A stretch of 64,000 nucleotides of DNA, from positions 1-64,000 of IMG/VR virus record IMGVR_UViG_3300013121_000044, one strand, 5' to 3'. The DNA is from a virus. Taxonomy: Duplodnaviria; Caudoviricetes. This document shows, piece by piece, positions 9,752 through 41,866 of the stretch; positions within the stretch are counted from its first letter, which is position 1; every line of letters starts with the position of its first letter. The notes under the pieces were generated by a model. The model did no database searches and was not told the DNA's origin. It was given only the letters and a program-made list of their open reading frames with translations. The position numbers and the translations under genes are program-made.

Positions 9752-10501
9752 TTAGGGGGTCCGATGTTGCAGGACTTCGCGCAGGTCTGTGATCTGTCCG
9801 TTCGTGTCAAGACGCAGTGCAAGTTCGCGCAGGACGGGCGCCAGCGGCCACCGCCACCACTTGAACTGGATCTCGGTCCCCAGCGTGACGGCGGTGTTCC
9901 AAAATTCGGTCTCACCGCCCGCACGCTTGTAAATCACCGTCTCTGCGATCGTGGGCATCTCGATCGAGTGCACCCCGAACGCAGCGCGAATGTCCGGCGC
10001 GGAGCCGACGAAGAAAGAGGCGACCACGTCCGCGAGGGTCTGACTCTCCCCGGAATCGCGGGAGAGACAGGAGACAGTGATCGGGACGACCGCGTGGCAG
10101 AGGAGGGCCTCCCCGCCTCTCGGGTAATCGTGCGCGACTCGGTTCCCTGTGCCGAGCTTCAAAAACTGGATCGTCCCCCGTCCCACGAGGAGGGCGGGAC
10201 GCACGTTGCGGGCTGTCGGATATTGCGTCGAGGCGAGTTCGATGTAGATACGTCGAGGGGCAGGCGCCTCCTCTTCATCATCGCCCGGGAGCGCGCCCGC
10301 GTCGTCGTCTTCGGGGGTCGGGTCGGCCGTCCAAACCCAGGGGAGGCCGCCCTCGTTCGGCTCGAAGAAACGCGCCTGGAGAACGGACGTGAACACCGCC
10401 AGGAGGGCGTTCGGCGACGACGGGAACACGTCCGGGTGCTGGTCCGACACCCGGGTCATGTTGAGGAAGGAGGTTCCGGGCCTTGGCGCTTGGTCGCTCA
10501 C
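9752..10501 (-). CDS. Putative tail completion/terminator protein
   Basis: Position between neck and sheath genes; size and beta-rich pattern fit. Confidence 0.5.
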   Translation of the reverse strand: MSDQAPRPGTSFLNMTRVSDQHPDVFPSSPNALLAVFTSVLQARFFEPNEGGLPWVWTADPTPEDDDAGALPGDDEEEAPAPRRIYIELASTQYPTARNVRPALLVGRGTIQFLKLGTGNRVAHDYPRGGEALLCHAVVPITVSCLSRDSGESQTLADVVASFFVGSAPDIRAAFGVHSIEMPTIAETVIYKRAGGETEFWNTAVTLGTEIQFKWWRWPLAPVLRELALRLDTNGQITDLREVLQHRTP

Positions 10502-10502
10502 G

Positions 10503-25704: not shown

Positions 25705-26406
25705 CTAGGCCCCCTCGACGAGCGACCCGGCGTCCGCGCCGGGGGCCCCGGAGAGCATGTTGTGCGCGCGGATGGCGCGTCGGATGTGCGGGCCGACCGT
25801 GGGGGGCATCTGGGCGAGTTCGCGAGGCGGGGTAGTCGGCGGGTCGAATCGGTGCCCGAGGCTGCGTGCGGCGTTCGTGATCCCGACGTGCGCCAGGGGA
25901 CCGAGCTTCCAACCCATGGTTCCCGTCACCGGGCCAATGAGAGCGCCCGTCGCGGCGGCGGCGAGATCCCCGCGCCGTTGTGAGGGGTCCCCGGTCATGG
26001 CTTGGTAGATGTCGAGTCCCGTCAGCCCGAGCCCAAGCGCGCGCATGGCGTTGCCCCCGGCGCGACCGAGCATCCCCGCGTCGGGCGCGTGCGGCGCCCA
26101 GTAGTAATCCTTGAGGAGCTTGCCGTACGCCTTGAGATGCGATCCTCGCGCCTGGGCGTCCTGACGAAAGGCGTGCCACGCGTCGACGGGGGAACCGACC
26201 GCGATTTCGCGCGCCAGATTGGCGCTCGTGTGCGCCACGTCTTTGGCGGTGTTCCAGGCTCCGGGACCGTACCCCGGAGACGGGTGGTTGCGGAAGAGCC
26301 ACGTCGCGGCGCGACCGAGGGCTCCGGCGTTGAGCGCCACTTTGGTGAGTCCGTATCGGCGGAGGGTGTCTTCTTCGGCGCGCCGTACGGCGTATTGTGG
26401 AGCCAT
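25705..26406 (-). CDS. Probable virion protein with hydrophobic segments
   Basis: Start overlaps the RNAP stop. N-terminal TLRRYGLTKVA followed by Gly/Ala-rich helices. Confidence 0.65.
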   Translation of the reverse strand: MAPQYAVRRAEEDTLRRYGLTKVALNAGALGRAATWLFRNHPSPGYGPGAWNTAKDVAHTSANLAREIAVGSPVDAWHAFRQDAQARGSHLKAYGKLLKDYYWAPHAPDAGMLGRAGGNAMRALGLGLTGLDIYQAMTGDPSQRRGDLAAAATGALIGPVTGTMGWKLGPLAHVGITNAARSLGHRFDPPTTPPRELAQMPPTVGPHIRRAIRAHNMLSGAPGADAGSLVEGA

Positions 26407-28205
26407 CAGTACGTCCCTCCGGGGCCGTGGCGCATCTCCGCGCCATAGGCGTAGGCCGGGACGGGGTGCGTTCCGTGCAGGTCCGACTCATCGCCGATGT
26501 GCGCCGCGTCTTGAATCGACCCTTTCAGGTACCTGTGGGCGAGGCGCGCCATCCAGTCCCGATCGAGGAGCGGGTTCATCGTGAACGGGCGCATCACGAA
26601 CTCGACCGACGGCATTCGACGCGCCACGGGCACCTCATGCACGCCGGCCTCGCGGAGTTCTCGTGCGAGGGCAGGGGTGACCGGCGTACCGACGGTGTGG
26701 TGGAGGACTTCGCCTCCGAGGCGGCGGCCGACCGCTTCGTCGGTGCGCAGGCGTACGGCGTCTCGCCCGTACGCGTCACGGAGCGCGTTGTAGTTGACCA
26801 CGTCTCCCTTCAGGAGCTCGGGGTGTTCGGGATCGGCCTCCGTGAGGCGCACGTGGTTGATCTCGCTCTTGGCGAGGAGCTCCAGGTGCCTACGGTCGAG
26901 GTTCACCCCCTCGTTCTGATAGACCCGGTGGAGGGCGTCGACGAAGTAAGCCCGGCCCGCTCCGATGCCCTTGTGCTCCACGACGCGTGCGGGGTGTGGC
27001 ACCCCGTCCGTGAGGGCGTCCCCCGCCTCGACGTGTTGCCCCGGTTTGACCGTCACATCGAGCTCCGGATCGGCGTAGATCTTCTGGGAGCCCACCCACA
27101 CGAAATGTCCCCCCTGGGGGGCCTTCTCGATCTTGGTCACGACACCGGCCTGTGTGGCGAGCGCGGCTTCGTGGCGGAACGCCTTGGGAATTTCCAGGAG
27201 CTGGCGCACCCCCTTCAAGCCCGTGGGGGTCTTCGTGGTGGCCTTCACGGTGAGCGTACCGTGGCGCGAGGAGAGAGCCATCTGCGTGAGGGGCTCCGCC
27301 ATCGCCTGGGCCGCGCGCACCCCCACCGGGGCTCCGATCCCATGTGGCTGGCCCCGTTCATTCAAGCCCTGACACATCTGACAGACGCCGCGCGGCGCGG
27401 CGCACGTCATGGGCGATCGGACCAGAATGGTGGTCTTGCCGCGCGCGCGGAGGTCCGCGAGGATGCGGGGGGTGAGGAGCGTGTTTCGGGCGAGGCCCCC
27501 GTCCGCTTGGGTGTAGCGGTCGAGCGCGTGGGAGTCGTCGGGCCGCATGCGGACCCCCGCCGTGGTTCCGCAGTCGCTCGTCGTCACGACGTTCGAGATC
27601 ATGTTCGCGACGAGCACTTTCGCCATCTCGCCCGGTTCGGACACCGAGATACGGGCCGCGACCTCGTTGGCTCTCACCTCAGGCCCCGCGAGCCAGTACT
27701 GGGCGGGCGTGAGACCTTCGGAATAGGAGCGGTCGAGGACCCGGTGCACGAGGCCCTCCTTGGGGTGCACGGTCGCCAAGGGCGTCGCGACGATCTTCAT
27801 CAACTGGCCGGGGTTTCCGCGAGCCCCCGAGAGGGCCATGTGGGTCATCGAGCCGGGGTGCTTTTTCGTATGGTCGAGCACCTTGGCTTGCGCGTCCACG
27901 ATGATGCGTTCGCGCTCCTGCGGGGTATGCGCCTTCTCCAGCGCAGCCACGGCCGGCTTCACGATCGCGTCGCGTGTCTTGTAGTCGGGGCGGATGTCGT
28001 CGAGACCGACGGAGATCCCTTCGAGCGTGGCGATCTCATCGCCACGTCGCTTCAAGGCCATGACCGTCCGGACGTACGCCTGTGGATCCGTTCGCGCGAG
28101 GTCGACGACGTGGTCGTGCAAGACCTTGTTCGTCACAGGCCCCGTGACCTTGTAGCCATCGGGGAGGACGGAGTTGATCAGGAGGTGACCGAGCGTCGTA
28201 CTCAT
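26406..28205 (-). CDS. rpoC: Phage multisubunit RNA polymerase, beta' C-terminal part
   Basis: SGARGN, SYSEGLT, DCGT, VRSPMTC....GVCQMCQG, VGVRAAQAMAEPLTQMALSSRH (trigger loop), RRHLELL. Confidence 0.9.
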   Translation of the reverse strand: MSTTLGHLLINSVLPDGYKVTGPVTNKVLHDHVVDLARTDPQAYVRTVMALKRRGDEIATLEGISVGLDDIRPDYKTRDAIVKPAVAALEKAHTPQERERIIVDAQAKVLDHTKKHPGSMTHMALSGARGNPGQLMKIVATPLATVHPKEGLVHRVLDRSYSEGLTPAQYWLAGPEVRANEVAARISVSEPGEMAKVLVANMISNVVTTSDCGTTAGVRMRPDDSHALDRYTQADGGLARNTLLTPRILADLRARGKTTILVRSPMTCAAPRGVCQMCQGLNERGQPHGIGAPVGVRAAQAMAEPLTQMALSSRHGTLTVKATTKTPTGLKGVRQLLEIPKAFRHEAALATQAGVVTKIEKAPQGGHFVWVGSQKIYADPELDVTVKPGQHVEAGDALTDGVPHPARVVEHKGIGAGRAYFVDALHRVYQNEGVNLDRRHLELLAKSEINHVRLTEADPEHPELLKGDVVNYNALRDAYGRDAVRLRTDEAVGRRLGGEVLHHTVGTPVTPALARELREAGVHEVPVARRMPSVEFVMRPFTMNPLLDRDWMARLAHRYLKGSIQDAAHIGDESDLHGTHPVPAYAYGAEMRHGPGGTY

Positions 28206-28212
28206 CGGGGCC

Positions 28213-28554
28213 TCACACAGGTCCCGACATGGGGGAGGGGCCGATCCCGTACGCGTCGCCCAGATCTGCGCCCCCGGTGCCCGAGTCGGACCAGCGTACG
28301 CCACCGTCCTGAGAGGTGAGGAGCGGCTTCCGCTCTCGCGGCTGTCGTCCGTAACCGAAATTCGACCGACGGAAGAGCTTGGCGAGCATGTCGGCGCCGT
28401 TCCCCTCGTCGAGGAGCGCGTACTTCTTCAAGACCGCCTTGGCGGCCAAGTCGAAAGCGTGCCCCACGCCCGAGAACCGACCCGCCGCCCCGCGCGCGGG
28501 AGCGTTCGGAGCTTTCATGGGCGTCGCGGGGATGATCACCTCGGAGCGACTCAT
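28213..28554 (-). CDS. Hypothetical protein
   Basis: ATG overlaps the upstream stop; fills the gap. Confidence 0.55.
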   Translation of the reverse strand: MSRSEVIIPATPMKAPNAPARGAAGRFSGVGHAFDLAAKAVLKKYALLDEGNGADMLAKLFRRSNFGYGRQPRERKPLLTSQDGGVRWSDSGTGGADLGDAYGIGPSPMSGPV

Positions 28555-29057
28555 CGGATGCCCCCAAGCCAGCGTTGGAGATCCTCGATATGCGTCAGCT
28601 CCACCCTCGCCCCCTCCTGCGCGAACCCCGACAGAGCAAGGCGCTCCGGCTGAGCCTCCGCAGCGGACGCCAGAGCCTCCCACGCGACCAGGGCTTGTTT
28701 CTCCAGCGCGAGCAGGGCTTCGAGCATGGGCCGGGGGTCCGCGAGAGGGGGCGAAGGTACGGAGACGCCAGCGGGAAAATGGGCCTCGCCGCGCGCGGCC
28801 AGGGTCCGGTGCAGCGCGTAGATCCAGTCACGCTCCTCCTCGATGTGGTCGCGGAAATGCCGATGAAGCCCGTCTCGATCGACGACGCGCAACTGATCGC
28901 CGTACGCCATGTACGCCAGCAGTACGGCGTACTTCGCGTCGAGAACTCCGCGAACCGCCCCGACGTAAGGGTCCGCCATTGGGCCGTGGCCGTCCGGCGA
29001 GCCTGAGGCTTCCGAGGACAGGTACGGGTCGAGATCGGGCGGGAACCCTTCAGGCAT
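28551..29057 (-). CDS. Ferritin-like four-helix-bundle protein (degenerate ferroxidase motifs)
   Basis: HFRDHIEEERDW...LAARG and LLALEKQAL...VELTHIEDL follow the bacterioferritin helix pattern. Confidence 0.6.
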   Translation of the reverse strand: MPEGFPPDLDPYLSSEASGSPDGHGPMADPYVGAVRGVLDAKYAVLLAYMAYGDQLRVVDRDGLHRHFRDHIEEERDWIYALHRTLAARGEAHFPAGVSVPSPPLADPRPMLEALLALEKQALVAWEALASAAEAQPERLALSGFAQEGARVELTHIEDLQRWLGGIR

Positions 29058-32000
29058 CGTCGCTCTCCAACCAGCATAGCGTGGTGGCGAGCAGGTCGGG
29101 GGTCGCTTCGCGCCCCTCCTGCAAGGCGGCCAGCACCTCCGCGTCGGAGACCCAGGCGGCCTTCTTGACCGCGCTCTTGTCCTCGATCTCGATGTGGTCG
29201 GTGAGCTGGAGCGCCCCCTTGCGCCACGCGGCGATCGCTTCCTCCTCGGTCTTGAACTTCTTCGCGGGGCCCGTGGGGGTCCCCGCCTTGGAGGCGTGCG
29301 TGAACCCGATGATGGCCTCGTGTTGCGGGAAGGCCATGAGCTTTCGGCGCGTCTGGTCGGAGAGGAGCATGTTCGAGAGAGTCATGTGTTTGGCCTCTTC
29401 GATTGCGTCCTGGGTCACCGGCACGTGCACCTGGAGGGTGTCCCCGTCGTAGTCGAGGTTCATCCCCTTCTCGATGAAGGGGTTCACGCGGATGGTCTTG
29501 CCCTGCACGGGCACTGGATGTGCGGCGACGATGGACCAGCGGTGCAGCGTGGGCGCGCGGTTGATCAGGACGGGGCGTTCCTTGGTCTCCGCCAGGAGCG
29601 CTTCGCGTGCGACGGGGTCCTTCTTGTTCACGCGCTCACGCGCGTCGAGGGCCGGGTAGCCCGTACGAACGAGTCGGGCCACGACCAGTTTGTCGTACAT
29701 CTGCCAGAGCATCTGCTCCGGGAGTCCCACGTGGTCCATGCCGAGGTTGGCGTCCGGGACTGCGGTGCCGCGCCCTGACACGTCCTGCGTGCGGCGCATG
29801 AGCTTCCGCTGGAAGAAGCCCCCTTTCGGCGTGCCGACCCCCGCGATGTTCGAGAGGAACCCCTTCACGCTCTGACCCCTCAGCTCGTCGTTCTCTACGT
29901 CCTCGGTGCCGTAAAGCGCTGCGACGGCGTTGAAGACCTGACGCCTGTGCTTGGCACGATCCGATTCCACGGCGGTGGTGCGGAGCGTGTGGTTGGAGTC
30001 CATGAGGTGGCCGTAGAGCTTGTTGGCGTCCGCCACCATGAGCATCGAAGGGTCGTTCGGCTGCGGCAGGATCGGTCGGAATACGGGAGGCACCACGGGC
30101 ACCTTCGAGACGATGTACGCCTCGTGCGGCTTCATGCCCTCCTTCTGGAGCGCTTCGAGGTACTTGATCTGCTTGACGAGGTCGTTGAGCTCCGCGCCCG
30201 ACGCCTTGGTCATGCGCGTCCGGAGCTCCCGAAGACGTGAGGGAACGTCCAGTGCCTTCAGCTGCTCGTGAAACCAAGCACCGCCGTGTTCCCCCAGTTT
30301 TGCCTCGAACTCTTTCTCCGAGAGGCCGAGGAGGCGCCGCACCGGCTCCTTGAAAACGGGATGGGGGATCGCTTCCGGCAGGTCGATATGGGCGTAGAGA
30401 GTTCCCTGCGGCCCTCCCGTCAAACGCGGGTCAAAGAGCCCTCCCATTTCAGGGCGAAGGTTCTTTGCGACGAGAGTCTTGGCGTTTTCGAGGGCCCCCG
30501 TGCTCTTGGCGAGCACGTCCTTGTCCGTCATCGGCAGGAGCTTGATCTTGGACCCGCGCTTGTCGACCCGGAGACCGGCCCCCTCCAGCATGCCGACGAA
30601 CTTCGAGAAGGCGAAGGGCGGGCGTTCGACAGGGAGGGGCGCGCCGAGTTGGATCGCCTTCCAGAAGGCGTCGTTCTTCTGACCCTTGATCGTCGCCGCC
30701 TCGCGCAGGAAGTTACGGGCGTTGTGAGCGATGAGGGCGTCAAACTCCATCTTCCCGAGGCCCTTGGCGGAGTCGTCTCCGCCGGTCTTCAGCGGCTGCT
30801 CGTTCAGGTCGTACGGACCTACGCCGTGACCTGCGAAGTTGGTGTCCGTCGACTTGAAGAGCTTGTAGATGAATTGCCGCCCGACCAGGACGCCCTGCCC
30901 GTCGTGTCCCTTGATGTGGCGCTTGAGCACGGGGTCGTAGATGTGCTCCTTGTCCTTGACATCGTGCTTCTTCAGGAGGTCCGTCGCCCACTCGACCGCG
31001 TTGTGCCGCGCGTTGTTGTCGTAGATGATCGGCTTCCCTGTCTTCTCGACGACCTTTCCGACGGCGGTCTCGATCACCTGGGCCGGGTTGATGCGGGACA
31101 CCACGCCCGCCGAGGTGAGGAGGAGGTCGATGGGACGCTCCTGCGCGTCCTGGAGCATCTCATGATCGGGCACGATCTTCGCCACGACGCCCTTGTTGCC
31201 GTAGCGCCCCGCGAGCTTGTCGCCGACCTGCATCGCCTCCCGAGTCCGAACGAGGACCGTGATCTGCGAGGAAGTTCGCACCACGTCGACGACTTCGCCG
31301 GGCGTGCCGTGCGTCCAGGTGAGAGCCACCTCCTGGTAGGGGCGGGCGAGCGCCTTGGAGATCCTTCCGAGGAGCGCGTCCGTCCCCGTCACCTGGGTCT
31401 TCGTGAGACCGGCGACGAGGAGGTCGCGCGGGTGTACGGTCACCCCCTTCCGTACGACGCCGTGCTCGTCCAATACGTCGTACGCCCGAGGCCCGTACTT
31501 CGTCCCGTAGTACATCCGGTGCTTCTCGCGGTTGAGCTCGATCTGCGAGCCCAACGGGTAGACCTCCCGGTACATGTGCTCGCTCGTGAGCTTCTTCGAG
31601 CACCCCTCGCTGATCACCACCGCGTCGTTGGAGTTGACGCCGTAGTAAGGGACGTAGGCGACGCGGAGGTTCTTGCCGAGCGCGAGGACGCCGTCGCGCG
31701 TGAAGTTTGATTCCCCGAGGCGTTGCCCTTCTTGGACGCGATCCCCGGGCTTCACGCTGAGATCATGGTGAAGATACGTCTTCGACGGGAAAGGGAAGAG
31801 ACGTTGATAGGGAACCTTGACGAGGCCCTCGTCCTTGTCGGCGTTCTTCTCGGACTCCGCCTTCTTCTTCAATCCTTCCGGCCGGATGTAGACCCAACCG
31901 TCCTCGATCTTGTGGACGGTGCCGGTCACGGGCGCGCGGGGCACCACCATGTGCCCGTAGAGCGCCTCGAAGGACACTTCCCCCGGAAGGTGGGACTTCA

Positions 32001-34620
32001 CCTGGACGAAGGGCGCCTCGCGCTCCAGAAGCGGCAGGGCCTGCGTGCCCATCTTCGAGCCCATGATGGCGCGGTTCCCCTGGATCGAGTGGATCATGGG
32101 GATGAGGGTCGTGGCGGGCGAGTAGGCGTGGGACACGTGCCCGAGCTGGTGTGTGACGCGCGAGCCCGGGACACGCTTTACTTTCCCGTTCACGAACGCG
32201 TCCACCTCCCCCTTCAGGTCTTCCCCGGCGAAGGCCACGACGTGGTGGGCAAGGTCGCCCGCCTTGAGGAACTCGTCCTTCCCCGTCCGGACGTTGCGCG
32301 CGACGGTGTAGAGGTTCCCCTGGTTGTCGCGGTGCGCCGCGATCGTCGCCCGGATGTCGACGCCCGAGTGGCTCGAATTACCTGACCAATGCCCCCCGCC
32401 ACCTCCCTGGCGAACATAGAGAAGGCCCCCAGGGACCGTGGCGCAGTAGACGAGACCGTCGTGTTCTTGGGTGAAGTAGTGCCCTTTCCTGGGGACGGCC
32501 TGACGATACCGGTCCTGGAGCAGGCGCACCTCGTAAACATCGAGGTATCGGTCTTCCCGCTTGTCCGCATACACCGAGGTACGGACGGACCAGCCCAGGG
32601 AGATGGCGAGACGCTCCACGTCGCCCGCCAATCTCCGGCTTGTGGTACAGAAAACTTCCTGCGTGTAAGTCTTCCCGGTCGCGCGGCGTGAGTCGATCCG
32701 CCCATCCCCCAGGAGCAGGGTTTCGAGCAGGTTTCGGCGCGCCGCGACGGGCGCGTCGAAGAAGTACTCGGGAATGTACTTGGCATCGCAGAAGCCGAAT
32801 TGGTGGAGATACGCCGCGAGTTGCCGGTGGCTGATGTGGAACCCTTTGTCGTTACACGACCACTTAAACGGGAGGCGCTTCAGCAGTGCCTCGATCGCGG
32901 CGCACTTCCAGTCATTGGCGGCACGGCTCTGCGAGATCTGTACGTGAGCAGGCTGCCCGTTCGCCTGCGCGGAGGTTGATCCCTCCGACAGGAACCACCC
33001 CATGAAGGAGCCCCAGAGGGCGATGTCGATCGCGCGCGCCCTGCGCGGGTAACCCGCCAGCGTGGGAAGCGTGAATGTACGCTTGCGTCCGCCTCGGTAG
33101 GGGAGGTGTCCCGTGTCGAACACCCGAGGCCGCCCGTGCGCTTCATCCGCCCGCACGAGGTCGAAGCGCGGTACCGTGTTTTGGCCCAGGGGGTACACGC
33201 GATCGACGGGAGCGCAGAAAACCCTGTGGTTCGGTGTGACGAGGTAGCTGACCTTGCCCGCACGTACGCCGTACAGCCGCCCCGCGTACGGCTCTCGGAT
33301 CAGCCGATTCGCGCGGCAAAACGCCAACGCACCCCCGATCCGGCAGGCGAAGAAGTCCTTCTCGGTCACCGCGTCCCACCTCTTCCAGCCTTCTTTCGTC
33401 AATACTTCCCCGTCACCCCTGTGACACTCCGGCGTGCGGATCGGGTCGAGCGCGCCGAAGTGGGTGTTGTGGATCATTCGCGCGTCGAGCGGGATCGCCC
33501 GGTCCGAGGGGATGCCGCCTTCGCCGAGGCTGGTGACCTTGACGGCATGGTCGATGAGCTCCAACGGGTTGATCCCTGTCGGGACGGCGGTGAGAGACGA
33601 AGTTGTGACGAACTTCCGCACCGCGTCGGAGAAGGGGGCGGGCCGGAGGGCGTCGCGCACGGAAGTCTTTCCGTTGAGCGCGAACTTCGCCTTCTGGGAC
33701 CACACACGTGCGGAGAGGCGGATCCGTTCGGCCAGGAAGTCGTCCAGGGAGTGGAAGGTCTTGAACGTCAGCGCGTCCGTGTCGTCCGTGGACACCTTGC
33801 CGGAGTGAACGGCGAGGACTTTCTTCGCCGCCGCCAGGAGCGCATCCGGCGTGACCTTATCGTAACCCTTCCCGAGGGTGGCTGCTGTGACGTGAGGGTC
33901 CAGCGTAGTCTGGTCGAGTTTCCGACGCACCTCCTCCACCTTCCCCGCGTGGGGCGCCTTCGGGTTCATCACCGAGGGGTGGACGAGCTTCGCGTAGAGC
34001 TTCCCGATCGCCTTCTCGTCGTCCTTGCCGTGGGCGGCGGCATTGGCCTCCGCCACCCCGTGGCCGAGGTGCTCGACGACCTTGTCGTGCCCGACACCGA
34101 GCGCTTTCAGCACGGGGTAGAGGGGGATGTTCGTAGTCCCGTAACTCAGGTGGAACGTGCCGCGCTTCGGCTCGAAACCGAGGTCGAAGTTCTTCCCACG
34201 CCCCAGGTTGAAGATCGCCTTGAGCTCCCCGTTGTCCGCCCTTGCCGTGTACACGCCCGGCTTGCGTCGCAACTGGTTGGCCACCTGATACTCGTTGCCG
34301 TCCGCGACGAGCGTGTGCCTCTCTGTGAGATAAGGGAGGTGTACGATGGTGAAGTTCTTCGCTTCGTCGATGATCTTCCCGTCGGATCCACGCAGTACGA
34401 GCGTCCCTTTGAGGGCTTCGTCCAGGGATCCTCCCGTCAGCAGCGCCCGCCGCTGCTCCTCCGGGGAGTAGTGTTTCTCCACGACGCGGAGGTCTTTGAC
34501 TTCGAGCTTTCGCTCCCGCATGTCGAGGGGAAACGCGGTCTGAACAGCGTTCACGGCCTTGGACCGGACGCGCTCACGCAGGGACGCCGCGTCCGTCAAA
34601 ATGGGGGTCGGCTCGGTCAT
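29050..34620 (-). CDS. rpoBC: Phage RNA polymerase beta/beta'-N fusion subunit, intein-containing
   Basis: Beta motifs: NPLELIDH..VTSLGEGG, DPIRTPE, NRAIMGSKMGTQA, GDKLAGRYGNKGVV, SRIN. Beta' motifs: GGLFD, PVVPPVFRP, NRAPTLHR and catalytic NLDYDGD. Confidence 0.92.
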   Translation of the reverse strand: MTEPTPILTDAASLRERVRSKAVNAVQTAFPLDMRERKLEVKDLRVVEKHYSPEEQRRALLTGGSLDEALKGTLVLRGSDGKIIDEAKNFTIVHLPYLTERHTLVADGNEYQVANQLRRKPGVYTARADNGELKAIFNLGRGKNFDLGFEPKRGTFHLSYGTTNIPLYPVLKALGVGHDKVVEHLGHGVAEANAAAHGKDDEKAIGKLYAKLVHPSVMNPKAPHAGKVEEVRRKLDQTTLDPHVTAATLGKGYDKVTPDALLAAAKKVLAVHSGKVSTDDTDALTFKTFHSLDDFLAERIRLSARVWSQKAKFALNGKTSVRDALRPAPFSDAVRKFVTTSSLTAVPTGINPLELIDHAVKVTSLGEGGIPSDRAIPLDARMIHNTHFGALDPIRTPECHRGDGEVLTKEGWKRWDAVTEKDFFACRIGGALAFCRANRLIREPYAGRLYGVRAGKVSYLVTPNHRVFCAPVDRVYPLGQNTVPRFDLVRADEAHGRPRVFDTGHLPYRGGRKRTFTLPTLAGYPRRARAIDIALWGSFMGWFLSEGSTSAQANGQPAHVQISQSRAANDWKCAAIEALLKRLPFKWSCNDKGFHISHRQLAAYLHQFGFCDAKYIPEYFFDAPVAARRNLLETLLLGDGRIDSRRATGKTYTQEVFCTTSRRLAGDVERLAISLGWSVRTSVYADKREDRYLDVYEVRLLQDRYRQAVPRKGHYFTQEHDGLVYCATVPGGLLYVRQGGGGGHWSGNSSHSGVDIRATIAAHRDNQGNLYTVARNVRTGKDEFLKAGDLAHHVVAFAGEDLKGEVDAFVNGKVKRVPGSRVTHQLGHVSHAYSPATTLIPMIHSIQGNRAIMGSKMGTQALPLLEREAPFVQVKSHLPGEVSFEALYGHMVVPRAPVTGTVHKIEDGWVYIRPEGLKKKAESEKNADKDEGLVKVPYQRLFPFPSKTYLHHDLSVKPGDRVQEGQRLGESNFTRDGVLALGKNLRVAYVPYYGVNSNDAVVISEGCSKKLTSEHMYREVYPLGSQIELNREKHRMYYGTKYGPRAYDVLDEHGVVRKGVTVHPRDLLVAGLTKTQVTGTDALLGRISKALARPYQEVALTWTHGTPGEVVDVVRTSSQITVLVRTREAMQVGDKLAGRYGNKGVVAKIVPDHEMLQDAQERPIDLLLTSAGVVSRINPAQVIETAVGKVVEKTGKPIIYDNNARHNAVEWATDLLKKHDVKDKEHIYDPVLKRHIKGHDGQGVLVGRQFIYKLFKSTDTNFAGHGVGPYDLNEQPLKTGGDDSAKGLGKMEFDALIAHNARNFLREAATIKGQKNDAFWKAIQLGAPLPVERPPFAFSKFVGMLEGAGLRVDKRGSKIKLLPMTDKDVLAKSTGALENAKTLVAKNLRPEMGGLFDPRLTGGPQGTLYAHIDLPEAIPHPVFKEPVRRLLGLSEKEFEAKLGEHGGAWFHEQLKALDVPSRLRELRTRMTKASGAELNDLVKQIKYLEALQKEGMKPHEAYIVSKVPVVPPVFRPILPQPNDPSMLMVADANKLYGHLMDSNHTLRTTAVESDRAKHRRQVFNAVAALYGTEDVENDELRGQSVKGFLSNIAGVGTPKGGFFQRKLMRRTQDVSGRGTAVPDANLGMDHVGLPEQMLWQMYDKLVVARLVRTGYPALDARERVNKKDPVAREALLAETKERPVLINRAPTLHRWSIVAAHPVPVQGKTIRVNPFIEKGMNLDYDGDTLQVHVPVTQDAIEEAKHMTLSNMLLSDQTRRKLMAFPQHEAIIGFTHASKAGTPTGPAKKFKTEEEAIAAWRKGALQLTDHIEIEDKSAVKKAAWVSDAEVLAALQEGREATPDLLATTLCWLESDDA
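32377..33426 (-). mobile_element. Intein (350 aa) with LAGLIDADG homing endonuclease
   Basis: Junctions TPE|CHRGDGEVLT...VYCATVPGGLLYVR....WSGN|SSHSG. VTPNH block B. LAGLIDADG-like FMGWFLSEGS and LLLGDG. Codon usage visibly less biased than the extein. Confidence 0.88.
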
Positions 34621-34761
34621 CGTCTAAGTGTACGTCTGGCGGGTAAAAGAGACTGAGCCCGGCCGCGTGCCCGGGTTCCGGAGAGGCAACTCCGATGGTC
34701 ATCGTTAGCGTCCTGCGGTTCGCGATCTTCCTTCTCTAAGCGTCGTACGCCGACGCCCGCG

Positions 34762-35130
34762 TCACAGGCGACGCGGGCGTTGGCGCTCGACCTCTGCTTT
34801 GGGGCGATCGACCTCGGACCACATCACGGTGACCTGCACGATCCCCGACGGGAGCGTGGTGGTGTTCATCCGCAGGTCAATCACCTCTTCGCGGACGCCG
34901 CGCGCCAGGAGGGTGTCGAGCTCGTCCTTCCGCACGTGGGGACAGAGCTGCTCCGTGTCCGGAGGCACGTAGTCGTCGGCCTCCAGGTCCTTCTCGATTT
35001 TTTTCTGGCAGAAGCGACAGGCGGAGAGAGGTCGATACGTGACGAACGTGTCGTGATGGACGCCACGTACCGCAGGAACGCCAGGGTTGGGGCCTCGGAT
35101 GCCTTCGATGGTGTCCCAGGGGGCGCTCAT
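34762..35130 (-). CDS. Hypothetical protein (Cys motif)
   Basis: 4-bp overlap with the portal stop; CRFC...CPH. Confidence 0.65.
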   Translation of the reverse strand: MSAPWDTIEGIRGPNPGVPAVRGVHHDTFVTYRPLSACRFCQKKIEKDLEADDYVPPDTEQLCPHVRKDELDTLLARGVREEVIDLRMNTTTLPSGIVQVTVMWSEVDRPKAEVERQRPRRL

Positions 35131-36857
35131 GACCCCCCTCGCGTCTGTGCCTTCATCTCGGCCTCTTGGTTCTGCTGAATCTGCTCCAGGAGCACCCGCA
35201 GTACGGCGTACGCCACCCCGTCCTCGGTCTTGATCTGATCGAGTCGACTCTGGCGCGTGCCGGGGTCCATGCCGACGAGCTCCTCCGCGAGGGGCGTGTT
35301 CGCTGCGAACACCTGGGCCGGGTCATACGATTGACCGCCGGAGCTCCGCATGGCTTGTTGACGGGACTGGAGGCTCAGGGACTGCTGCTGCTTCTGGATC
35401 GCGAGCTGCGTCTCCGTCTCCGCGCGCGCGTCGTCGAGAGCGTCCTGCCGACGTTGCTTCCGCTCGTGCGTGAGGTCCTTGTCGATCGCATCGGCCATTG
35501 TCGAGTCGCTGATCTTCCCGGCAGCCCACATCTGCGCGGTGAGCTGCTTGTTCTCGGAGTCGTCCACCATCTTGAAGTCGGCCAACTTCATGGGGACGGA
35601 GGCCCATCGAAGGAACGACGAGGCGCGCTCCTCAGTCCACTCGATGAGGCCGTTCAGGTTCTCGATGTGCACCCGGAGCTGGTTCTCGATCATGCGGAGG
35701 GTGATCTCCCCCCGCGTCTGTCCGAGCCCGCCCTTGAGGAACTCGATCGGCACGCCGAGAGAGAGGACGATGTTCTCCTCGGCCTGCTGAAGCTCGCCGA
35801 GCGTGAGCAGGGTCTTGCCCTCGCCGCCGACGTTCTGCACCCCGACGGGAATGGGCGAGAACATCAGGCGAAGCGGGTCTCGGCGGAATGCCTTGTAGTT
35901 CATCTCCAGCTCTTGGCGCCATCGCTGGAGGTTGATGGTGGTGAGGGGGTCGCCCTGGCCGCTCGCCGCCAGCGGGTGCATCACGCGGAAGGGCGTGATG
36001 TGCTCCAGGGCGATCGCCTCGTTGGCGCGGCGGAGGATGGCCGTGAAGAAGAACATCTTGATCGCGGCGGTGATCGGCGGGTACCCCCACTGCGACTCGA
36101 CCCCGGCGGGGCCCGGCATCCGCATGTGGTAGAGGGCCCCCTCGGCGAACTTGAAGGTCTTCTTCTCCTTCATCGCCGCCAGGAAGGCCATCGGCATGTG
36201 GTTGATCTTGGTCTTGTTCCCGGCGCGAACGTCCGCGATGAGCGAGCGCGGGATCGTGTAGTAGTAGACGCACTCCCCGGTGATGGGGTTCGAGTCGATG
36301 TCGATCAGCTTGGGGTCCCACCGGATCAGCTTGAGCTTCGCGGGGTCCCGGAGCTGCTCGTCGATGACCTTGGAGATCACCCGGAGCCTGCCGCAGTTCC
36401 GGCAGTCGTGGCGGAACTCCAGGCGGTCCAGGTTGAACGCGTACCGCGCCGCGCACACGTCCTCGCGCGTGTGGCAGTGCGGGCACTGGAGGTCGCGCTT
36501 GATGGGCTCGTAGAGGGACACGAAGCTGTTCCCCGTGAGCCACACGTCGAAGCTCACGAGCGTGAGGAACCCCTTCAAGCGGAGCTGCTTCTCGAAGAGG
36601 CGCTCGTGCCGCTTCTTCTCGGCCTCGCCGCTCGTCTCGTACACGAAGCGGGTGATCGGGTACTCCCCGAACTTTCGCACCGTGCCATAGATGTGCGCGG
36701 AGTTGAACCCGATGTATTCCGCTTGACGGAGGAGGTCCTTGAGCTTGCGGGGTGTGAACCCCGTCAAGTAGTCGAACATCGGGTTGGGGTGGCTGGAGCC
36801 ACGCGCCCCCGAGAGCGGGTCGGAGAACTGGTCGAAGTCGATCACTTGCGAACTCAA
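35127..36857 (-). CDS. Portal protein with Zn-ribbon insertion
   Basis: 576 aa; DVWLTGNSFVS, LYHMRMP....WGYPPI, IVLSLGVPIEFL and a coiled C-terminus; CPHC...CRNC insertion. Confidence 0.75.
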   Translation of the reverse strand: MSSQVIDFDQFSDPLSGARGSSHPNPMFDYLTGFTPRKLKDLLRQAEYIGFNSAHIYGTVRKFGEYPITRFVYETSGEAEKKRHERLFEKQLRLKGFLTLVSFDVWLTGNSFVSLYEPIKRDLQCPHCHTREDVCAARYAFNLDRLEFRHDCRNCGRLRVISKVIDEQLRDPAKLKLIRWDPKLIDIDSNPITGECVYYYTIPRSLIADVRAGNKTKINHMPMAFLAAMKEKKTFKFAEGALYHMRMPGPAGVESQWGYPPITAAIKMFFFTAILRRANEAIALEHITPFRVMHPLAASGQGDPLTTINLQRWRQELEMNYKAFRRDPLRLMFSPIPVGVQNVGGEGKTLLTLGELQQAEENIVLSLGVPIEFLKGGLGQTRGEITLRMIENQLRVHIENLNGLIEWTEERASSFLRWASVPMKLADFKMVDDSENKQLTAQMWAAGKISDSTMADAIDKDLTHERKQRRQDALDDARAETETQLAIQKQQQSLSLQSRQQAMRSSGGQSYDPAQVFAANTPLAEELVGMDPGTRQSRLDQIKTEDGVAYAVLRVLLEQIQQNQEAEMKAQTRGGS

Positions 36858-36886
36858 TGCCTCATGCAGGAGAGGATCACAACACC

Positions 36887-38899
36887 ATGCGTATCACCGT
36901 CGAGTTTTTGAAGGGTAACACTCCCGTGTTCTGTCTGGACGCTTCGGAGAGTTCTTCTGCGCGGCGCGTATGGGGCGCCGTGTGGTCGGGCGAGCGCTGG
37001 CTCTTCCCCGCTTACCACCCTTTCGGTCTCTGGGCGGCAGCGGATCTTCGGAAGCTCCACCCCGAGGCGGACTGGGATTCGGAGGCCGTAAGGCACGTCG
37101 GTGCACTGGAAGGGGACCAGGAGGCGTGGCTTCGCGCGGAGGCCGCTTGGAGGGGACGCGGGGACCCCTTGACCGCCGGGGACAGCCGACTCCCTCCCAT
37201 TCCCGCCGATTTTTTCCCCCCCGACTTCACGCCCTTCCTGCACCAGCGCCTCGGCATGGCGCGCGTTCGGCTCTGGCCCCGGTCATGGTTTCTATGGGAG
37301 CAACGCACGGGGAAGACCCGAACGCTCATCGACGGTCTCCGACTCCTCGCCCTCGAAGGGAAGTTCACGAAAGCGCTCGTCCTCGGCCCTCCGGTCGTGC
37401 TTCCCGGTTGGGTCGCGGAGACGCGGCGAGCGTCGCGCGGGGCCTGGGAGGCTGTGATTTGGGACGGGACTCCGGAGACTGCCGAGCGGGCCCGCACGGC
37501 GCAGGTCGTTCTCGTGAGCTACGCCCGTGCTCGTCTCGCGGCGCAAGTGGAGGTGCCGCACCCCCAGCTCGGGTCGATGAAGGTATTCGCCCCGGAAGCG
37601 AGTCCTCTTCGGGAGCTCGGGTACGACGTGATCGTGGCGGATGAGTCGCACAACCTCGGAAACTGGAAGTCGGATCAAACGCGAGCGGCCGTGGAACTCT
37701 CGAAACTCGCGGCCCGGCGCTACTGCTTGACGGGCACGGCGGGGGATCAGCCCCTCAAGGTTTACGGGCAACTCTACTTCCTGGCGCCGGGGCTCGTCCC
37801 GATGAGCTGGGAGAGGTTCGAGGAAAAGCACGTGATTCGCTCGGAGCGAATGGCGCACATCGTCACGGGTTACCGTGCGCTCAACGAGATCAACGCGGTG
37901 GTCGATTCCGTGGCGACCCGGCTGAAGCGCGCCGAGTGTATGGACCTGCCGCCGCGCGTCACCATCGACGTTCCCTTCGATCTCGGACCTCGGCAGCGCT
38001 CGCGCTATAACGAGATGGTCGCGGAGATGCGTGCGTCGGTGACGCCTGCCCTGGAGTACCTCCACGCCAAGGACGCAAGCGGGCCCGTCGAGAGCGGGGC
38101 TGAAACTCTTTTCAATTTGCCGCACGGGGCGACGCGCGTGCAGAAACTCCTCCAGCTCCTCTCGGGCTTCATCCTTCTCGGGACGGAGGATTCGATCTGC
38201 GACGCTTGCCCCCGCATGGAGGCGTGCGTGGAGGAGCAGGTACGCCCCTACACGCGGAAGTGCGCCGTCGTGCAGAAGAAGCCGCCTCGTCGGGTACTCC
38301 GGGACGTGGAGAACCCCAAGCTCGAACTTTTCGAGGCGCTCCTCGCGGCGGTTCTGGAAGAGGACCCCACCAACAAGATGATCGTGTGGGGGTCCTTCGA
38401 CGAGGAGCTCGACGACCTGATGAAGGTGTGTGAGCGCCTCGGAGGTGCGCCCGTGCGCCTGGATGGCGACACCACGAAGCACATCGCCGACATCCGGGAG
38501 CGCTTCCAAGGAGACTCGACCTGTCGAACGCTCGTTGGGATGGTGACGGCGGGGATCGGCATCGACCTGTCCGCCGCGAACTACATGCTCTATTACAGCC
38601 TGCCGTGGCAGCCGTTGGTCTATTCCCAGGCGGAGGATCGGAACAACGGGCCGGGTCAAAAGCGCCCGATGACCGTCTACAGGCTCCTCACGTCCGCCGA
38701 GACGCCGGCCCTGGATCGTTTCATCGCGGGAGTTTTGAAGTTCAAGGGTCGCGTGGCATACACCATGCTGGAGCGGGTCGCCTGCGCTTCTTGTGAGCGT
38801 CAAGCGACGTGTGCCCTTGACGGAACCGTCCCGTTCCAGGAGAACTGCAAGTACGCCGCTGCGGTGGCGAGGCCCGTTACCAAGGTGCACCTCCTGTGA
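36887..38899 (+). CDS. SNF2-family (SF2) helicase
   Basis: EQRTGKT, DESH, LTGT, AGIGIDL, QAEDR. Confidence 0.85.
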   Translation: MRITVEFLKGNTPVFCLDASESSSARRVWGAVWSGERWLFPAYHPFGLWAAADLRKLHPEADWDSEAVRHVGALEGDQEAWLRAEAAWRGRGDPLTAGDSRLPPIPADFFPPDFTPFLHQRLGMARVRLWPRSWFLWEQRTGKTRTLIDGLRLLALEGKFTKALVLGPPVVLPGWVAETRRASRGAWEAVIWDGTPETAERARTAQVVLVSYARARLAAQVEVPHPQLGSMKVFAPEASPLRELGYDVIVADESHNLGNWKSDQTRAAVELSKLAARRYCLTGTAGDQPLKVYGQLYFLAPGLVPMSWERFEEKHVIRSERMAHIVTGYRALNEINAVVDSVATRLKRAECMDLPPRVTIDVPFDLGPRQRSRYNEMVAEMRASVTPALEYLHAKDASGPVESGAETLFNLPHGATRVQKLLQLLSGFILLGTEDSICDACPRMEACVEEQVRPYTRKCAVVQKKPPRRVLRDVENPKLELFEALLAAVLEEDPTNKMIVWGSFDEELDDLMKVCERLGGAPVRLDGDTTKHIADIRERFQGDSTCRTLVGMVTAGIGIDLSAANYMLYYSLPWQPLVYSQAEDRNNGPGQKRPMTVYRLLTSAETPALDRFIAGVLKFKGRVAYTMLERVACASCERQATCALDGTVPFQENCKYAAAVARPVTKVHLL

Positions 38900-39622: not shown

Positions 39623-39990
39623 CTCGCGAGGAACATCTGTTTCACGACGCGCAGCGTCACAAGGCCATTGTGACGTACCTGTTCGTGGAACTGTGGACCG
39701 CGCCCGCCGACGAACAATCCGTGGCGCAACAGTTCTACGAGTGTTACCGCCACCTCGTGGAGGGGGGGAGGCTCGACGAGCTCCCCCTCCGAATCATCCC
39801 TCAGGCAGATGTCGTGCGCGCTCTCAGGCGGATCCTGCGCGGCGACGAACCACAGCTGGCCCGAATGACCAGCCAGGAGAACTCTCATGACGACGACGAC
39901 GACGAGCGAAGAGACGAAGGCGAAGGACCCCCCCGAGAAGGGCTCGAAGCAGGAGAAGAAGTCCGAATCCAAGTCCGGCGCGTCGGGTAA
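39529..39990 (+). CDS. Hypothetical protein (start uncertain, overlaps both neighbours)
   Basis: Only protein-like plus frame across 39622-39887. Confidence 0.4.
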   Translation: MPKVPRTSSFAHPRVFVDAVRDLRDRTLRAVTREEHLFHDAQRHKAIVTYLFVELWTAPADEQSVAQQFYECYRHLVEGGRLDELPLRIIPQADVVRALRRILRGDEPQLARMTSQENSHDDDDDERRDEGEGPPREGLEAGEEVRIQVRRVG

Positions 39991-41008
39991 GACCCTCGCC
40001 GGCTACGCGGCGGTGTTCCAGAACTGGGAACTGGTTCCGGTCGAGGACGGTCCCGTGGAGATCGACCCGGCGCGCCTCCTGGTGGTGTTCGACGTGCGCA
40101 CCACGCCGCAGCCGATCGACGACTTCCTCAAGTCGTGCGTGGGGGGCATCAACAGCCCCCCCAAGATCACGAAGATGAAGTACCTGGGCGAGGACGGCGA
40201 GGCCGCCGTCAGCTCCGATCCCAAGGCGCGGGTCGCGCTCAAGCGCGGCGCGATCTACCACGTGATCGTGTACGGCCGTCGTCGCGTTCGGGCGGCGGTG
40301 AAGCTCAGCTTCAAGACCATCAAGGCGGAGATCAAGGGGTACAAGACGTGGCAGGCCATGGTCCATGACGCCTACGTCGAGAACGACGCGCGCGCCGACA
40401 TGACGACGTGGGACAGGGCGTCCTACGTCAAGAACCTCCGTGACGCGGGCATGCTCCAGGACAAGATCGCCGAGGAGCTCAAGATGAGCTCGGCCTCCGT
40501 CTCCCAGTACCTCGGCGTCTTCGACCTCCCCCAGCCGATCCAGAAGATGATCGGCAACGGGGCTCTCAGCGTCACGGCCGTGAGGGTTTTGCGCCCGCTC
40601 AAGGAGTACAACCCCGACGAAGTGATCGCTCTGGCGCAGAGGGCGATCGACAAGGGCTGGACCGAGGACGAGCTCAAGGCCGCCGTGAACGACTTCACCG
40701 CGAGGAAGGAGGTGACGGGAGGCCCGTCGAAGAAGGGCGGCAAGAAGAAGGTCAGCCGCGTCGTGGACTACGACAAGGCCGAGGTCGCGTTCGTCGGCGT
40801 GTCGAAGATCCGGCCCGCGCTGAACTTCTACGCCACGCGCGTGAAGATCCTGCGGGCCAAGGAGGTCGACGACACGCCCGAGGCGCAGATCCGGCACGCG
40901 CGCAAGCTCGGCAAGGAGGAGGGCATCCTGGAAGGGCTCCTCCAGGCGTCGAAGATCCACGAGATCCCGGCGGCGGTGTTCGTCGCCGAGGACTCGGCCG
41001 AGGAGTAG
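39887..41008 (+). CDS. parB: ParB/Spo0J-family DNA-binding protein
   Basis: YHVIVYGRRRVRA (GxxRxxA), ENDAR and HTH QDKIAEELKMSSASVSQYL; AGGAG RBS. Confidence 0.82.
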   Translation: MTTTTTSEETKAKDPPEKGSKQEKKSESKSGASGKTLAGYAAVFQNWELVPVEDGPVEIDPARLLVVFDVRTTPQPIDDFLKSCVGGINSPPKITKMKYLGEDGEAAVSSDPKARVALKRGAIYHVIVYGRRRVRAAVKLSFKTIKAEIKGYKTWQAMVHDAYVENDARADMTTWDRASYVKNLRDAGMLQDKIAEELKMSSASVSQYLGVFDLPQPIQKMIGNGALSVTAVRVLRPLKEYNPDEVIALAQRAIDKGWTEDELKAAVNDFTARKEVTGGPSKKGGKKKVSRVVDYDKAEVAFVGVSKIRPALNFYATRVKILRAKEVDDTPEAQIRHARKLGKEEGILEGLLQASKIHEIPAAVFVAEDSAEE

Positions 41009-41012
41009 GGAC

Positions 41013-41801
41013 TCAGGTCGCCACAAGCTCGCTGCGCGCGTCGGGGTTCGCGGCGTGCCACTGTCGAATTTTTTCGATCGCACCGTCGCGAATGGCACGA
41101 AGTTCGGGGACCATGAAGATGGAGCCGTCCATGCCGTAGAGGATTTGCGCGGCGGCCTCTTCGTCGTGTGCGTTGCCGCGCAGTCCGAGCAGGAGGGTCA
41201 ATACGACCCGCTCGCGTCGATTGAGACCCGCCGCGTGAAGTTGCCCGAGTGCTGCGCGCCCTTTTGGCGTCGCGGATACTTCCACGTCATCGTCCGACGC
41301 GATCTGCACGTCCTCGATCGGAGTCATCACAGGATCCGGTGGCCCGTCACCCCGCAGCATCGTCTGCTTTCGCAGGTGGACCGAGATGTGGACGGTTCCC
41401 AGCCGGTGCAGAACTTCGTCCATCTTCACGTCCACCCAGTGCGCGGCGTAGGTGAGGAAGCGAACCGGTTTGTTCGTTTTCTTTGATCGGTAGTTCGGGT
41501 CGTACTTATCGACGGCGATCATGAGCCCCTCGTTACCTGCGCTGATGAGTTCGGGGAGGAGCTCCTTGTCGCGCGTCCGATCCCTTGCTTTGCCAATCAC
41601 AAAGCGGAGATAGCCTTCCGCGAGACGCCCTCCCAGGCGTGCCCGCTTCCTTTCGCTTTGAGCACGCACAACCGGGTCCGTCATGGTCTCCAGGGCGAGC
41701 TTCAACGCTCTGTATTCCACGAACCCGGCGCGCTCTTCTTCCTTCGTCGGCAGCGAAAGTTGTCCGACTTCCTCGAAATAGCGTGCGATTGTATCCCGCA
41801 T
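41013..41801 (-). CDS. Sigma70-family sigma factor
   Basis: Region 1.2 (RYFEEVGQLSLPTKEEE), region 2 (YLRFVIGKA...ELISAGNEGLMIAVDKYDP...RFLTYAAHWV) and a degenerate region 4 (LNRRERVVL). Confidence 0.85.
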   Translation of the reverse strand: MRDTIARYFEEVGQLSLPTKEEERAGFVEYRALKLALETMTDPVVRAQSERKRARLGGRLAEGYLRFVIGKARDRTRDKELLPELISAGNEGLMIAVDKYDPNYRSKKTNKPVRFLTYAAHWVDVKMDEVLHRLGTVHISVHLRKQTMLRGDGPPDPVMTPIEDVQIASDDDVEVSATPKGRAALGQLHAAGLNRRERVVLTLLLGLRGNAHDEEAAAQILYGMDGSIFMVPELRAIRDGAIEKIRQWHAANPDARSELVAT

Positions 41802-41866
41802 ACTCTCGGGATATACACTCTTTTCCCCGACATGTCGTCGGCGAGTCACGAGGCAACAGCAGCACT

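Follow-up and report, generated by a model that had tools for sequence, protein, structure and literature searches.

Two RNA polymerase genes between portal and head genes

The stretch of DNA analysed here (the window) is the first 64 kb of IMG/VR record IMGVR_UViG_3300013121_000044, a virus genome of 186,803 bp with direct terminal repeats and a G+C content of about 67% that is rated complete. Between a portal gene and a set of head genes, all on one strand, the window carries two genes for an RNA polymerase (RNAP). The first joins the beta subunit to the N-terminal half of beta-prime in a single chain interrupted by an intein, and the second encodes the C-terminal half of beta-prime. The enzyme is a phage RNAP of the bacterial type in which three features meet: a fusion like that of Helicobacter, a split like that of cyanobacteria, and an intein. 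Positions are those of the window unless the whole genome is named, and features lie on the minus strand unless a plus strand is indicated. The G+C content at third codon positions is 0.86 in both genes.

The fused-chain gene (29050..34620) encodes, in the order beta, intein and beta-prime N-terminal half, a precursor of 1856 amino acids (aa), or 1506 aa after predicted splicing. Pfam placed the beta domains Rpb2_2, Rpb2_3 and Rpb2_6 at residues 141-1278 and the beta-prime domains Rpb1_1 and Rpb1_2 at residues 1471-1747 of this single frame. An earlier note on this DNA had described one such open reading frame (ORF), of 1856 aa and about 1506 aa once the intein is removed. Both figures stand: Pfam found the domains in one frame, and alignment with the chains of Salmonella phage Arash and Vibrio phage D69 gave exactly 1506 residues.

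The N-terminal part of beta (residues 1-398, 33427..34620) comprises the protrusion and the lobe (Pfam Rpb2_2 and Rpb2_3), aligns to residues 54-422 of cyanobacterial beta and ends in the motif RTPE. The C-terminal part (residues 749-~1357, 30550..32376) contains the fork, the second double-psi barrel, the flap and the C-terminal helix; Rpb2_6 was matched here with an E-value (E) of 3.5e-38. Compared with the PDB, the beta part matched beta chains with E 4.5e-65, and both the flap tip and the C-terminal helix aligned. The beta-prime N-terminal half (residues ~1358-1813, 29182..30549), with clamp, lid, rudder and catalytic barrel, is joined directly to the end of beta. At the junction, the last beta helix aligns with the final residues of bacterial beta and the beta-prime segment follows with no linker. 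This segment aligns to Salmonella and Acinetobacter beta-prime from residue ~17, and the fused chain covers beta-prime residues ~17-572 in E. coli numbering. It matched PDB beta-prime and gamma chains with E 1e-41, in agreement with Foldseek. A 907-aa piece across the junction was modelled with AlphaFold2 (AF2) at a predicted local distance difference test score (pLDDT) of 88.2 and a predicted template modelling score (pTM) of 0.80. The Foldseek matches of this model were bacterial beta-prime, cyanobacterial and plastid gamma, and beta. The Pfam, PDB and Foldseek matches to bacterial beta and beta-prime bear out the description of the enzyme as recognisably bacterial-type.

The catalytic metal-binding motif reads NLDYDGD (residues 1721-1727, 29440..29460) and aligns to NADFDGD. 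DYDGD is invariant in the alignment with Arash and D69, and D.DGD is invariant in 61 sequences. As the earlier note had seen, the chain ends shortly after this motif: homology stops near residue 1813, about 85 residues past NLDYDGD. Beyond this split point lies a 43-aa C-terminal tail (29053..29181), found in the closest relatives only and modelled with pLDDT of 34-62. The Arash and D69 orthologues stop at the split point without this tail. In our alignment, the rifampicin-pocket positions Q513, D516, R529 and S531 of E. coli read A, T, K and T in the phage beta. We therefore predict that transcription by the phage would be insensitive to rifampicin.

The second gene (26406..28205) encodes a 599-aa chain identified by Pfam (Rpb1_5), by its match to PDB beta-prime chains (E 8e-35) and by AF2. 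It contains the funnel, bridge helix, trigger loop, second zinc site and C-terminal part of the clamp. AF2, Foldseek and the four cysteines placed bridge helix, trigger loop and zinc site in this gene, where they had been expected. The frame extends from 26406 to 28304 on the minus strand, and the match to relatives begins at its residue 30-43 in 23/23 loci (32-37 in 21/23). Since no relative (0/23) supports an upstream GTG extension, the start was set at the ATG at 28205, giving 599 aa. The chain opens with a TTxG element that corresponds, by alignment, to about residue 587 of E. coli beta-prime. Foldseek aligned the whole of its AF2 model (pLDDT 84.1, pTM 0.72) with the C-terminal half of bacterial beta-prime (TMq 0.67-0.70). 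The bridge helix (residues 167-202, 27600..27707) is a helix of 36 residues in the model and aligns to the corresponding region of Thermus beta-prime. The second zinc site is formed by Cys 212, 268, 275 and 278 (27372..27572), the sole four cysteines of the chain, and all four are nearly invariant in the alignment of relatives. The trigger loop (27192..27326) is modelled as two helices, residues 294-316 and 329-338, with a flexible tip and no SI3-type insertion; pLDDT dips at residues 310-330, and HMMER aligned the loop to Thermus beta-prime 894-1104.

Loss of the beta-prime zinc hairpin

The N-terminal zinc-finger cysteines of beta-prime, described as apparently missing in the earlier note, are indeed absent. 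Alignment with bacterial beta-prime revealed the scar of a deleted zinc hairpin, TGGPQGTLYAH (30388..30420): about 40 bacterial residues carrying the four zinc-hairpin cysteines are replaced by about 8 cysteine-free residues. A further stretch of about 34 residues is gone shortly after the hairpin, while the lid, the rudder (4 residues shorter) and the clamp helices are kept. The extein contains two cysteines in total, neither of them at the zinc-hairpin site. The cysteine-free loop is common to the whole fused family, whereas the hairpin cysteines are kept in Rhizobium phage RHph_Y65 and Vibrio phage Va2, which have a separate beta-prime. As read from these alignments, fusion and absence of the zinc hairpin occur together, every fused form having lost it.

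An intein in a conserved beta motif

The two parts of beta are separated by a predicted intein of 350 aa with a LAGLIDADG-type homing endonuclease core (residues 399-748, 32377..33426). Arash gp206 (1525 aa) and its D69 orthologue (1527 aa) lack an insert at exactly residues 399-748, so that the extein has 1506 aa. Pfam gave a weak match to PF14528 (LAGLIDADG) at residues 628-694. The insertion site lies between RTPE and S749, in a motif that reads ETPEG in bacteria, adjoins the rifampicin-pocket segment and is close to the active centre. An orthologous intein occupies the same site in three relatives, and C399 (Cys1), the TPNH block B, LLGDGR, the terminal N748 and the +1 residue S749 are invariant in the four (4/4) orthologous inteins. 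By its Cys1, TxxH, terminal Asn and +1 Ser, the element is a putative class 1 type intein, with a departure at the penultimate His. The unspliced precursor should be inactive, because the intein sits in a conserved beta motif adjoining the rifampicin-pocket segment.

Among relatives, inteins or other inserts were observed at three more sites: a beta surface loop, the beta GNKG motif and the beta-prime DYDGD motif. The additional inteins in DYDGD and GNKG lie at ~6202-7700 in L012 and L013, at ~6225-7408 and ~3388-4452 in L017, and at ~6135-7202 in L006. The RNAP of the fused family is an intein hot-spot, with intein sites always in the most conserved motifs. In the present phage the beta surface loop is short and Lys/Glu-rich (residues ~922-934, 31819-31857). 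The same loop holds inserts in relatives P0031 (707-764), P0012 (612-666), P0029 (582-635) and P0023 (578-678). Some of these inserts resemble an inorganic pyrophosphatase (PF18823, 45.7 bits in P0031, above the cut-off) and others a P-loop AAA_18 domain; it would be unusual for an RNA polymerase to contain its own pyrophosphatase.

The fused layout is the norm in a large phage family

When the junction was searched with a word index, more than 120 clusters came back at 61-93% identity; every one had beta and beta-prime domains in a single protein, and their contigs reached 191 kb. We also ran a HMMER search against 1.84 billion representatives clustered at 50% identity. It gave 8224 hits, of which the best 150 were inspected for the junction; it was spanned in all of them (150/150), down to 35% identity. 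The fused and split layout is also present in cultured phages, namely Salmonella phage Arash and Vibrio phages D69, D148 and D181. In 23/23 IMG/VR loci the genes follow the order portal, small ORF (detected in 20/23), fused gene and beta-prime C-terminal gene. Rather than setting one genome apart, the layout is the usual one in a large phage family whose members are largely uncultured.

A set of 261 relatives was sorted by the position of the C-terminus. The protein ends just after the beta-prime N-terminal half in 209, also holds the C-terminal half in 41, and is ambiguous in 11, mostly through an intein that interrupts the catalytic motif. In the single-chain relatives (41 representatives, for instance P0161 and P0191) the whole core of ~2000-2090 aa is encoded in one frame. 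An example is the uninterrupted ORF of 2040 aa at 4571-10693 of IMGVR_UViG_3300037634_006620 (L026), which contains beta and all of beta-prime; in another single-chain representative Pfam likewise found the beta domains and all beta-prime domains. In these forms the C-terminal part of beta-prime begins 0-5 residues after position ~1812. Because the C-terminal half follows this residue so closely where the chain is unbroken, the split point of the two-chain form is fixed. The single-chain core of ~2040 aa in 41 relatives is new here.

In the course of these searches, several public phage records, including OR844998, CAKLQH020000005 and AGRM01000005, were recognised as bacterial contigs carrying nusG-rplKAJL-rpoBC. 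Such mislabelled Staphylococcus, Acinetobacter and Salmonella records give misleading phage RNAP matches.

Phylogeny

The best NCBIfam match of the fused chain was the Helicobacter-type fused model NF007172 (315 vs 5372 bits); NF011417 scored 273 vs 4632 bits. The equivalog models were not reached either (rpoB 282 vs 896 bits, rpoC 188 vs 963 bits), the scores falling 3-17x below every cut-off. A scan of 185,579 species genomes returned ordinary rpoC genes only, at 27-32% identity, and Atribacterota, Campylobacterota, Pseudomonadota, Bacillota, Acidobacteriota, Actinomycetota, Cyanobacteria and other phyla were about equally distant.

Trees were built from the beta-prime N-terminal half, the largest with 181 rows: 83 bacterial sequences, 73 of the split type, 23 single-chain forms and 2 from phages whose beta-prime is separate. 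Bacteria and phages were separated with support of 99-100, and the fused family formed one clade with support of 100. In these trees the fused family is a single clade outside bacteria. Its nearest outgroup is formed by phages RHph_Y65 and Va2. The earlier note had raised the possibility that the genes would nest within a host rpoBC clade; they nest in no bacterial rpoBC clade.

One change suffices on the trees to account for the split or single-chain character. Monophyly of the split forms was supported at 99 (FastTree), 96 (LG+G4) and 59 (C20 mixture), and FastTree nested the split clade within a grade of single-chain forms. On this sequence evidence, the most likely history runs from separate beta and beta-prime genes to a full fusion with loss of the hairpin, and then to one later split. 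Fusion and hairpin loss are placed before the split because RHph_Y65, Va2 and bacteria all have an unfused, unsplit beta-prime with its cysteines intact. The single chain of ~2040 aa is thus the likely earlier state. Two observations count against this order: an approximately unbiased (AU) test (38 rows, LG+G4) did not reject a single-chain sister clade (p = 0.48), and the backbone of the mixture-model tree is unresolved, the order of events resting on parsimony.

Alpha, omega and sigma genes in the whole genome

A six-frame Pfam search of the whole 186,803-bp genome found no alpha (PF01000, PF01193) and no omega (PF01192), as the earlier note had reported for its stretch. The same searches matched alpha and omega in 14/14 reference genomes used as positive controls. 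The six-frame search also identified one PF00562/PF00623 locus in the whole genome, that is, a single beta/beta-prime set. A search for T7-type RNAP with PF00940 gave no match, but the controls were likewise without a match.

A candidate gene for a sigma-70-type factor of 278 aa is located at 41013..41849. It matches PF04542 (region 2) and the PHROG 351 sigma factor family (E 1e-13), and NCBIfam RpoS, RpoH and RpoD with E 1e-8 and weaker. Two further sigma-related genes lie outside the window. The first, at genome positions 73050-73757 (minus strand), matches sigma region 3 and is the orthologue of Arash gp10 (28% identity, E 2e-21). The second, at genome positions 118597-119289 (plus strand), encodes a 230-aa protein with sigma region 4 alone, at its N-terminus. 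By these matches the genome contains at least two putative sigma-70-type genes and three sigma-related genes. The enzyme had been described as a compact two-chain one; this holds for the core, but the phage also encodes sigma-70-type factors.

Gene neighbourhood

The portal protein gene (35127..36857) lies directly upstream of the RNAP genes and is 30% identical to Arash gp204 (E 6e-96). Further genes of this strand, downstream of the RNAP genes, encode homologues of gp218 and gp222 (structural proteins of Arash), of gp219 (hypothetical by annotation) and of the major capsid protein gp226, in the same order as in Arash. With the portal on one side and these head-gene homologues on the other, the genes do lie inside the virion gene block, as had been proposed. 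A 900-aa downstream ORF considered as a homologue of the Arash gp217 helicase was rejected, the gp217 orthologue being at genome positions 107896-109305.

Between the portal gene and the RNAP genes lies a small conserved ORF of 122 aa (34762..35130), which at its start overlaps the stop of the portal gene. Counterparts with 27-50% identity occupy the same place in 20/23 loci. Its possible identity as an omega-like subunit was explored with Pfam, PHROGs, NCBIfam and the ESM Atlas, which gave no usable lead, and no similarity was found in a comparison with Arash gp205. Between the two RNAP genes lies a ferritin-like ORF of 168 aa (28551..29057; PF00210, E 7e-10), which shares 8 nt with the end of the fused gene, stop codon included. 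A ferritin-like homologue is found between the fused gene and the beta-prime C-terminal gene in 17/23 related loci, and none in the Arash and D69 stretches examined.

On the far side of the portal gene, and divergent from it, lies a gene for an SNF2-family helicase (36857-38899, plus strand) homologous to Arash gp198c. It is followed by a gene for a ParB-like helix-turn-helix protein (39887-41008, plus strand), just before the sigma gene. A scan of 26000-37200 for promoter and terminator consensus sequences found nothing above chance.

Proposed mechanism and alternatives

Cellular RNA polymerases have two large subunits that assemble on an alpha-type platform. How phage RNAPs manage without alpha is presented as an open question in passages of PMC7598289. 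For the phage studied here, we think it probable that the two genes specify an intein-spliced, two-chain core free of alpha and omega, which would be directed by phage sigma factors and, by analogy with Arash, loaded into the virion. The intein would excise itself to leave the 1506-aa chain, on which the 599-aa chain would dock non-covalently, as the C-terminal beta-prime piece of cyanobacteria does on gamma. The assembled core would have 2105 aa and both double-psi barrels, with the catalytic barrel pair on one polypeptide. The join takes advantage of the fact that the C-terminus of beta and the N-terminus of beta-prime naturally lie close together. The covalent link between beta and beta-prime would then replace the alpha-dimer platform, so that neither alpha nor omega would be needed. 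Phage sigma-70-type factors would choose the promoters, docking on the beta-prime clamp helices and the beta flap tip, both of which are kept. The enzyme and one sigma factor would be loaded into the head and enter the cell with the DNA. Transcription by the packaged enzyme would be independent of the host polymerase and would not be blocked along with it.

The analogy relies on mass spectrometry of Arash particles. According to passages of PMC10585845, Gp206 gave 3516 spectra, the most of any protein, Gp216 gave 1210, and the sigma factor Gp10 and a helicase were present.

Several points weigh against the mechanism proposed above. For this phage, removal of the intein, assembly of the chains, the use of sigma factors and packaging are all predictions. 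The intein is missing the penultimate His; it ends in SGN (TGN in L005), with Gly-Asn in 4/4 orthologues. The sigma gene of the window scores at or just below the Pfam cut-off as a protein (22.8 vs 24 bits). The use of host alpha or omega is compatible with the sequence. In addition, the Arash authors caution, in passages of PMC10585845, that abundant enzymes may co-purify with particles.

This last point leads to a first alternative, in which the enzyme is not packaged: early genes would be left to the host RNAP, and the phage enzyme, synthesised once infection is under way, would take over the middle and late genes with the phage sigma factors. Besides the co-purification explanation, offered in the Arash paper itself, it is favoured by the presence of a single RNAP set, where phiKZ-like phages have two, a virion and a non-virion one, and by the promoter consensus scan, which found none in 26000-37200. 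However, the Gp206 spectra in Arash particles exceed those of the major capsid protein (passages of PMC10585845), and the RNAP genes lie between portal and head genes in 23/23 loci. We judge this alternative unlikely.

The two chains could also recruit a host alpha dimer, and perhaps omega, to form a phage/host chimera. The enzyme stands much nearer to bacterial beta and beta-prime than phiKZ-type enzymes do, its match to PDB chains (E 1e-65) being far stronger than that to PHROG jumbo-phage families (1e-12 to 1e-17), and alpha-contact surfaces could survive in such a protein; the fusion bacteria among Helicobacteraceae and Wolbachia presumably still use alpha. Against this, identity to bacterial beta-prime is 27-32% and equal across phyla. 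The hosts of the family are diverse (Salmonella, Vibrio and high-GC bacteria), which makes a conserved fit to one alpha unlikely, and a packaged enzyme would have to work on arrival. A chimera of this kind appears to us improbable.

A recent capture of host rpoB and rpoC, or bacterial DNA mis-binned as phage, would explain why sequence and fold searches alike match bacterial RNAP chains best. But the genes lie between portal and capsid genes of a complete virus genome with direct terminal repeats, their scores are 3-17x under the NCBIfam cut-offs, no phylum is closer than 32%, and the family is monophyletic outside bacteria. We give this explanation hardly any credence and regard it, on the sequence evidence, as already refuted.

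A frameshift, an error of assembly or a pseudogene in decay as the source of the fusion is refuted, its probability being negligible. No evidence in its favour was found, and several observations contradict it: the frame is open across the junction in 150/150 best representatives, 23/23 IMG/VR loci and four cultured phages, the catalytic residues are invariant, Arash Gp206 peptides were obtained at 100% coverage, and the fusion, which the earlier note had itself suggested might be an assembly artefact, occurs in hundreds of independent assemblies.

Returning to the intein-spliced two-chain core, we tentatively propose, as a bolder and somewhat doubtful extension, a self-sufficient RNAP of one or two chains, free of alpha and omega, programmed by sigma factors and delivered with the virion, in which the covalent link would have made both the alpha platform and the zinc hairpin dispensable. 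If this were true, it would be the simplest known enzyme with a nearly full bacterial beta/beta-prime domain set. The family suggests a simple way to do without alpha, which is to tie beta to beta-prime covalently, and offers natural one-chain and two-chain versions with their own sigma factors. A sigma-directed RNAP core encoded by one or two genes would be a useful orthogonal transcription tool, and the cultured members (Arash on Salmonella, D69 on Vibrio) make the family experimentally accessible.

Comparison with known systems

Neither the layout of beta joined to the beta-prime N-terminal half with a separate C-terminal chain nor the single-chain form was found described in the literature searched, most subscription journals lying outside it. 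The layout was likewise not found mentioned in passages of a jumbo-phage comparative paper and of a 2026 review.

The closest described enzymes are those of Arash (OQ632216; gp206 of 1525 aa and gp216 of 606 aa) and of D69, D148 and D181. They share the fused chain, the split point and the cysteine-free loop with the phage studied here, as well as the order portal, small ORF and RNAP and an orthologue of the sigma factor gp10, at 30-37% identity. They differ by the absence of the intein and of the 43-aa tail, and in Arash the two RNAP genes are 4.8 kb apart with opposite-strand genes between them. In the Arash paper (PMC10585845) the two genes are called simply 'beta' and 'beta-prime', and searching its text for terms found no mention of a fusion. 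The single-chain relatives have the same beta/beta-prime junction and have also lost the zinc hairpin, but their core is unsplit (31-40% identity).

Other phage RNAPs alignable with bacterial enzymes are found in RHph_Y65 and Va2, where beta-prime is a single chain of 1127-1192 aa with its hairpin cysteines intact. Identity to the phages with separate beta and beta-prime (RHph_Y65, Va2 and the mReC group) is 23-25%. In Weinheimer and Aylward (PMC7481178), beta and beta-prime of the mReC contigs are given as separate genes and 'fused' is used for crAssphage only. That these contigs may belong to the present family was considered; no sample ids are shared, and the tables list separate genes except for one 1487-aa 'beta' entry.

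The jumbo-phage RNAPs of the phiKZ/AR9 type work without alpha or omega (passages of PMC7598289). Like the enzyme described here, they are phage-encoded two-barrel enzymes whose beta-prime is cut after the catalytic barrel, and one of their sets is packaged in the virion. They differ in having beta in two or three pieces, two paralogous sets and no sigma homologue, and they are far more divergent. The present phage has an undivided beta in fused form, a single set, and genes of the sigma-70 type.

Natural fusions of beta to beta-prime are known in Helicobacteraceae and Wolbachia (Zakharova et al. 1999, cited in passages of PMC7483510). These rpoB-rpoC fusions are likewise head-to-tail, and the corresponding model NF007172 was the top NCBIfam match. 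The bacterial proteins are, however, unsplit and cellular, with about 2840-2890 aa (NCBIfam model lengths), and Campylobacterota beta-prime is no closer to the phage than that of other phyla.

The split had been likened in the earlier note to both the archaeal and the cyanobacterial ones, and only the second likeness stands. The archaeal A'/A'' cut, located after the bridge helix and before the trigger loop, is ~290 residues further on, whereas the phage bridge helix is in the second chain; the archaeal A'' model matched residues 292-315 of this chain only. In cyanobacterial and plastid rpoC1/rpoC2, as in the phage, the break in beta-prime falls in the linker that follows the catalytic barrel, and in cyanobacteria the pieces assemble non-covalently. 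The phage cut is ~20 residues upstream, before TTxGRxxxN, at another site of the same linker. Residue 36 of RpoC2 aligns with residue 51 of the phage beta-prime C-terminal chain, and the fused chain stops near residues 560-580 of gamma, which has ~625 aa. Lyngbya gamma ends about 10 residues past TTPGRIIYN; in the phage the same element opens the second chain. Cyanobacteria also differ in having beta as a separate chain, and the phage C-terminal chain is without the large trigger-loop insertion. The phiKZ-type beta-prime is cut after the catalytic barrel as well, at the cyanobacterial position (Sokolova et al., passages of PMC7598289). We read the phage cut as independent of the cyanobacterial and phiKZ-type cuts because it arose within the fused phage family. 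With this further cut in the same linker, beside those of cyanobacteria, plastids and phiKZ-like phages, the linker appears to be a structurally permissive seam of beta-prime.

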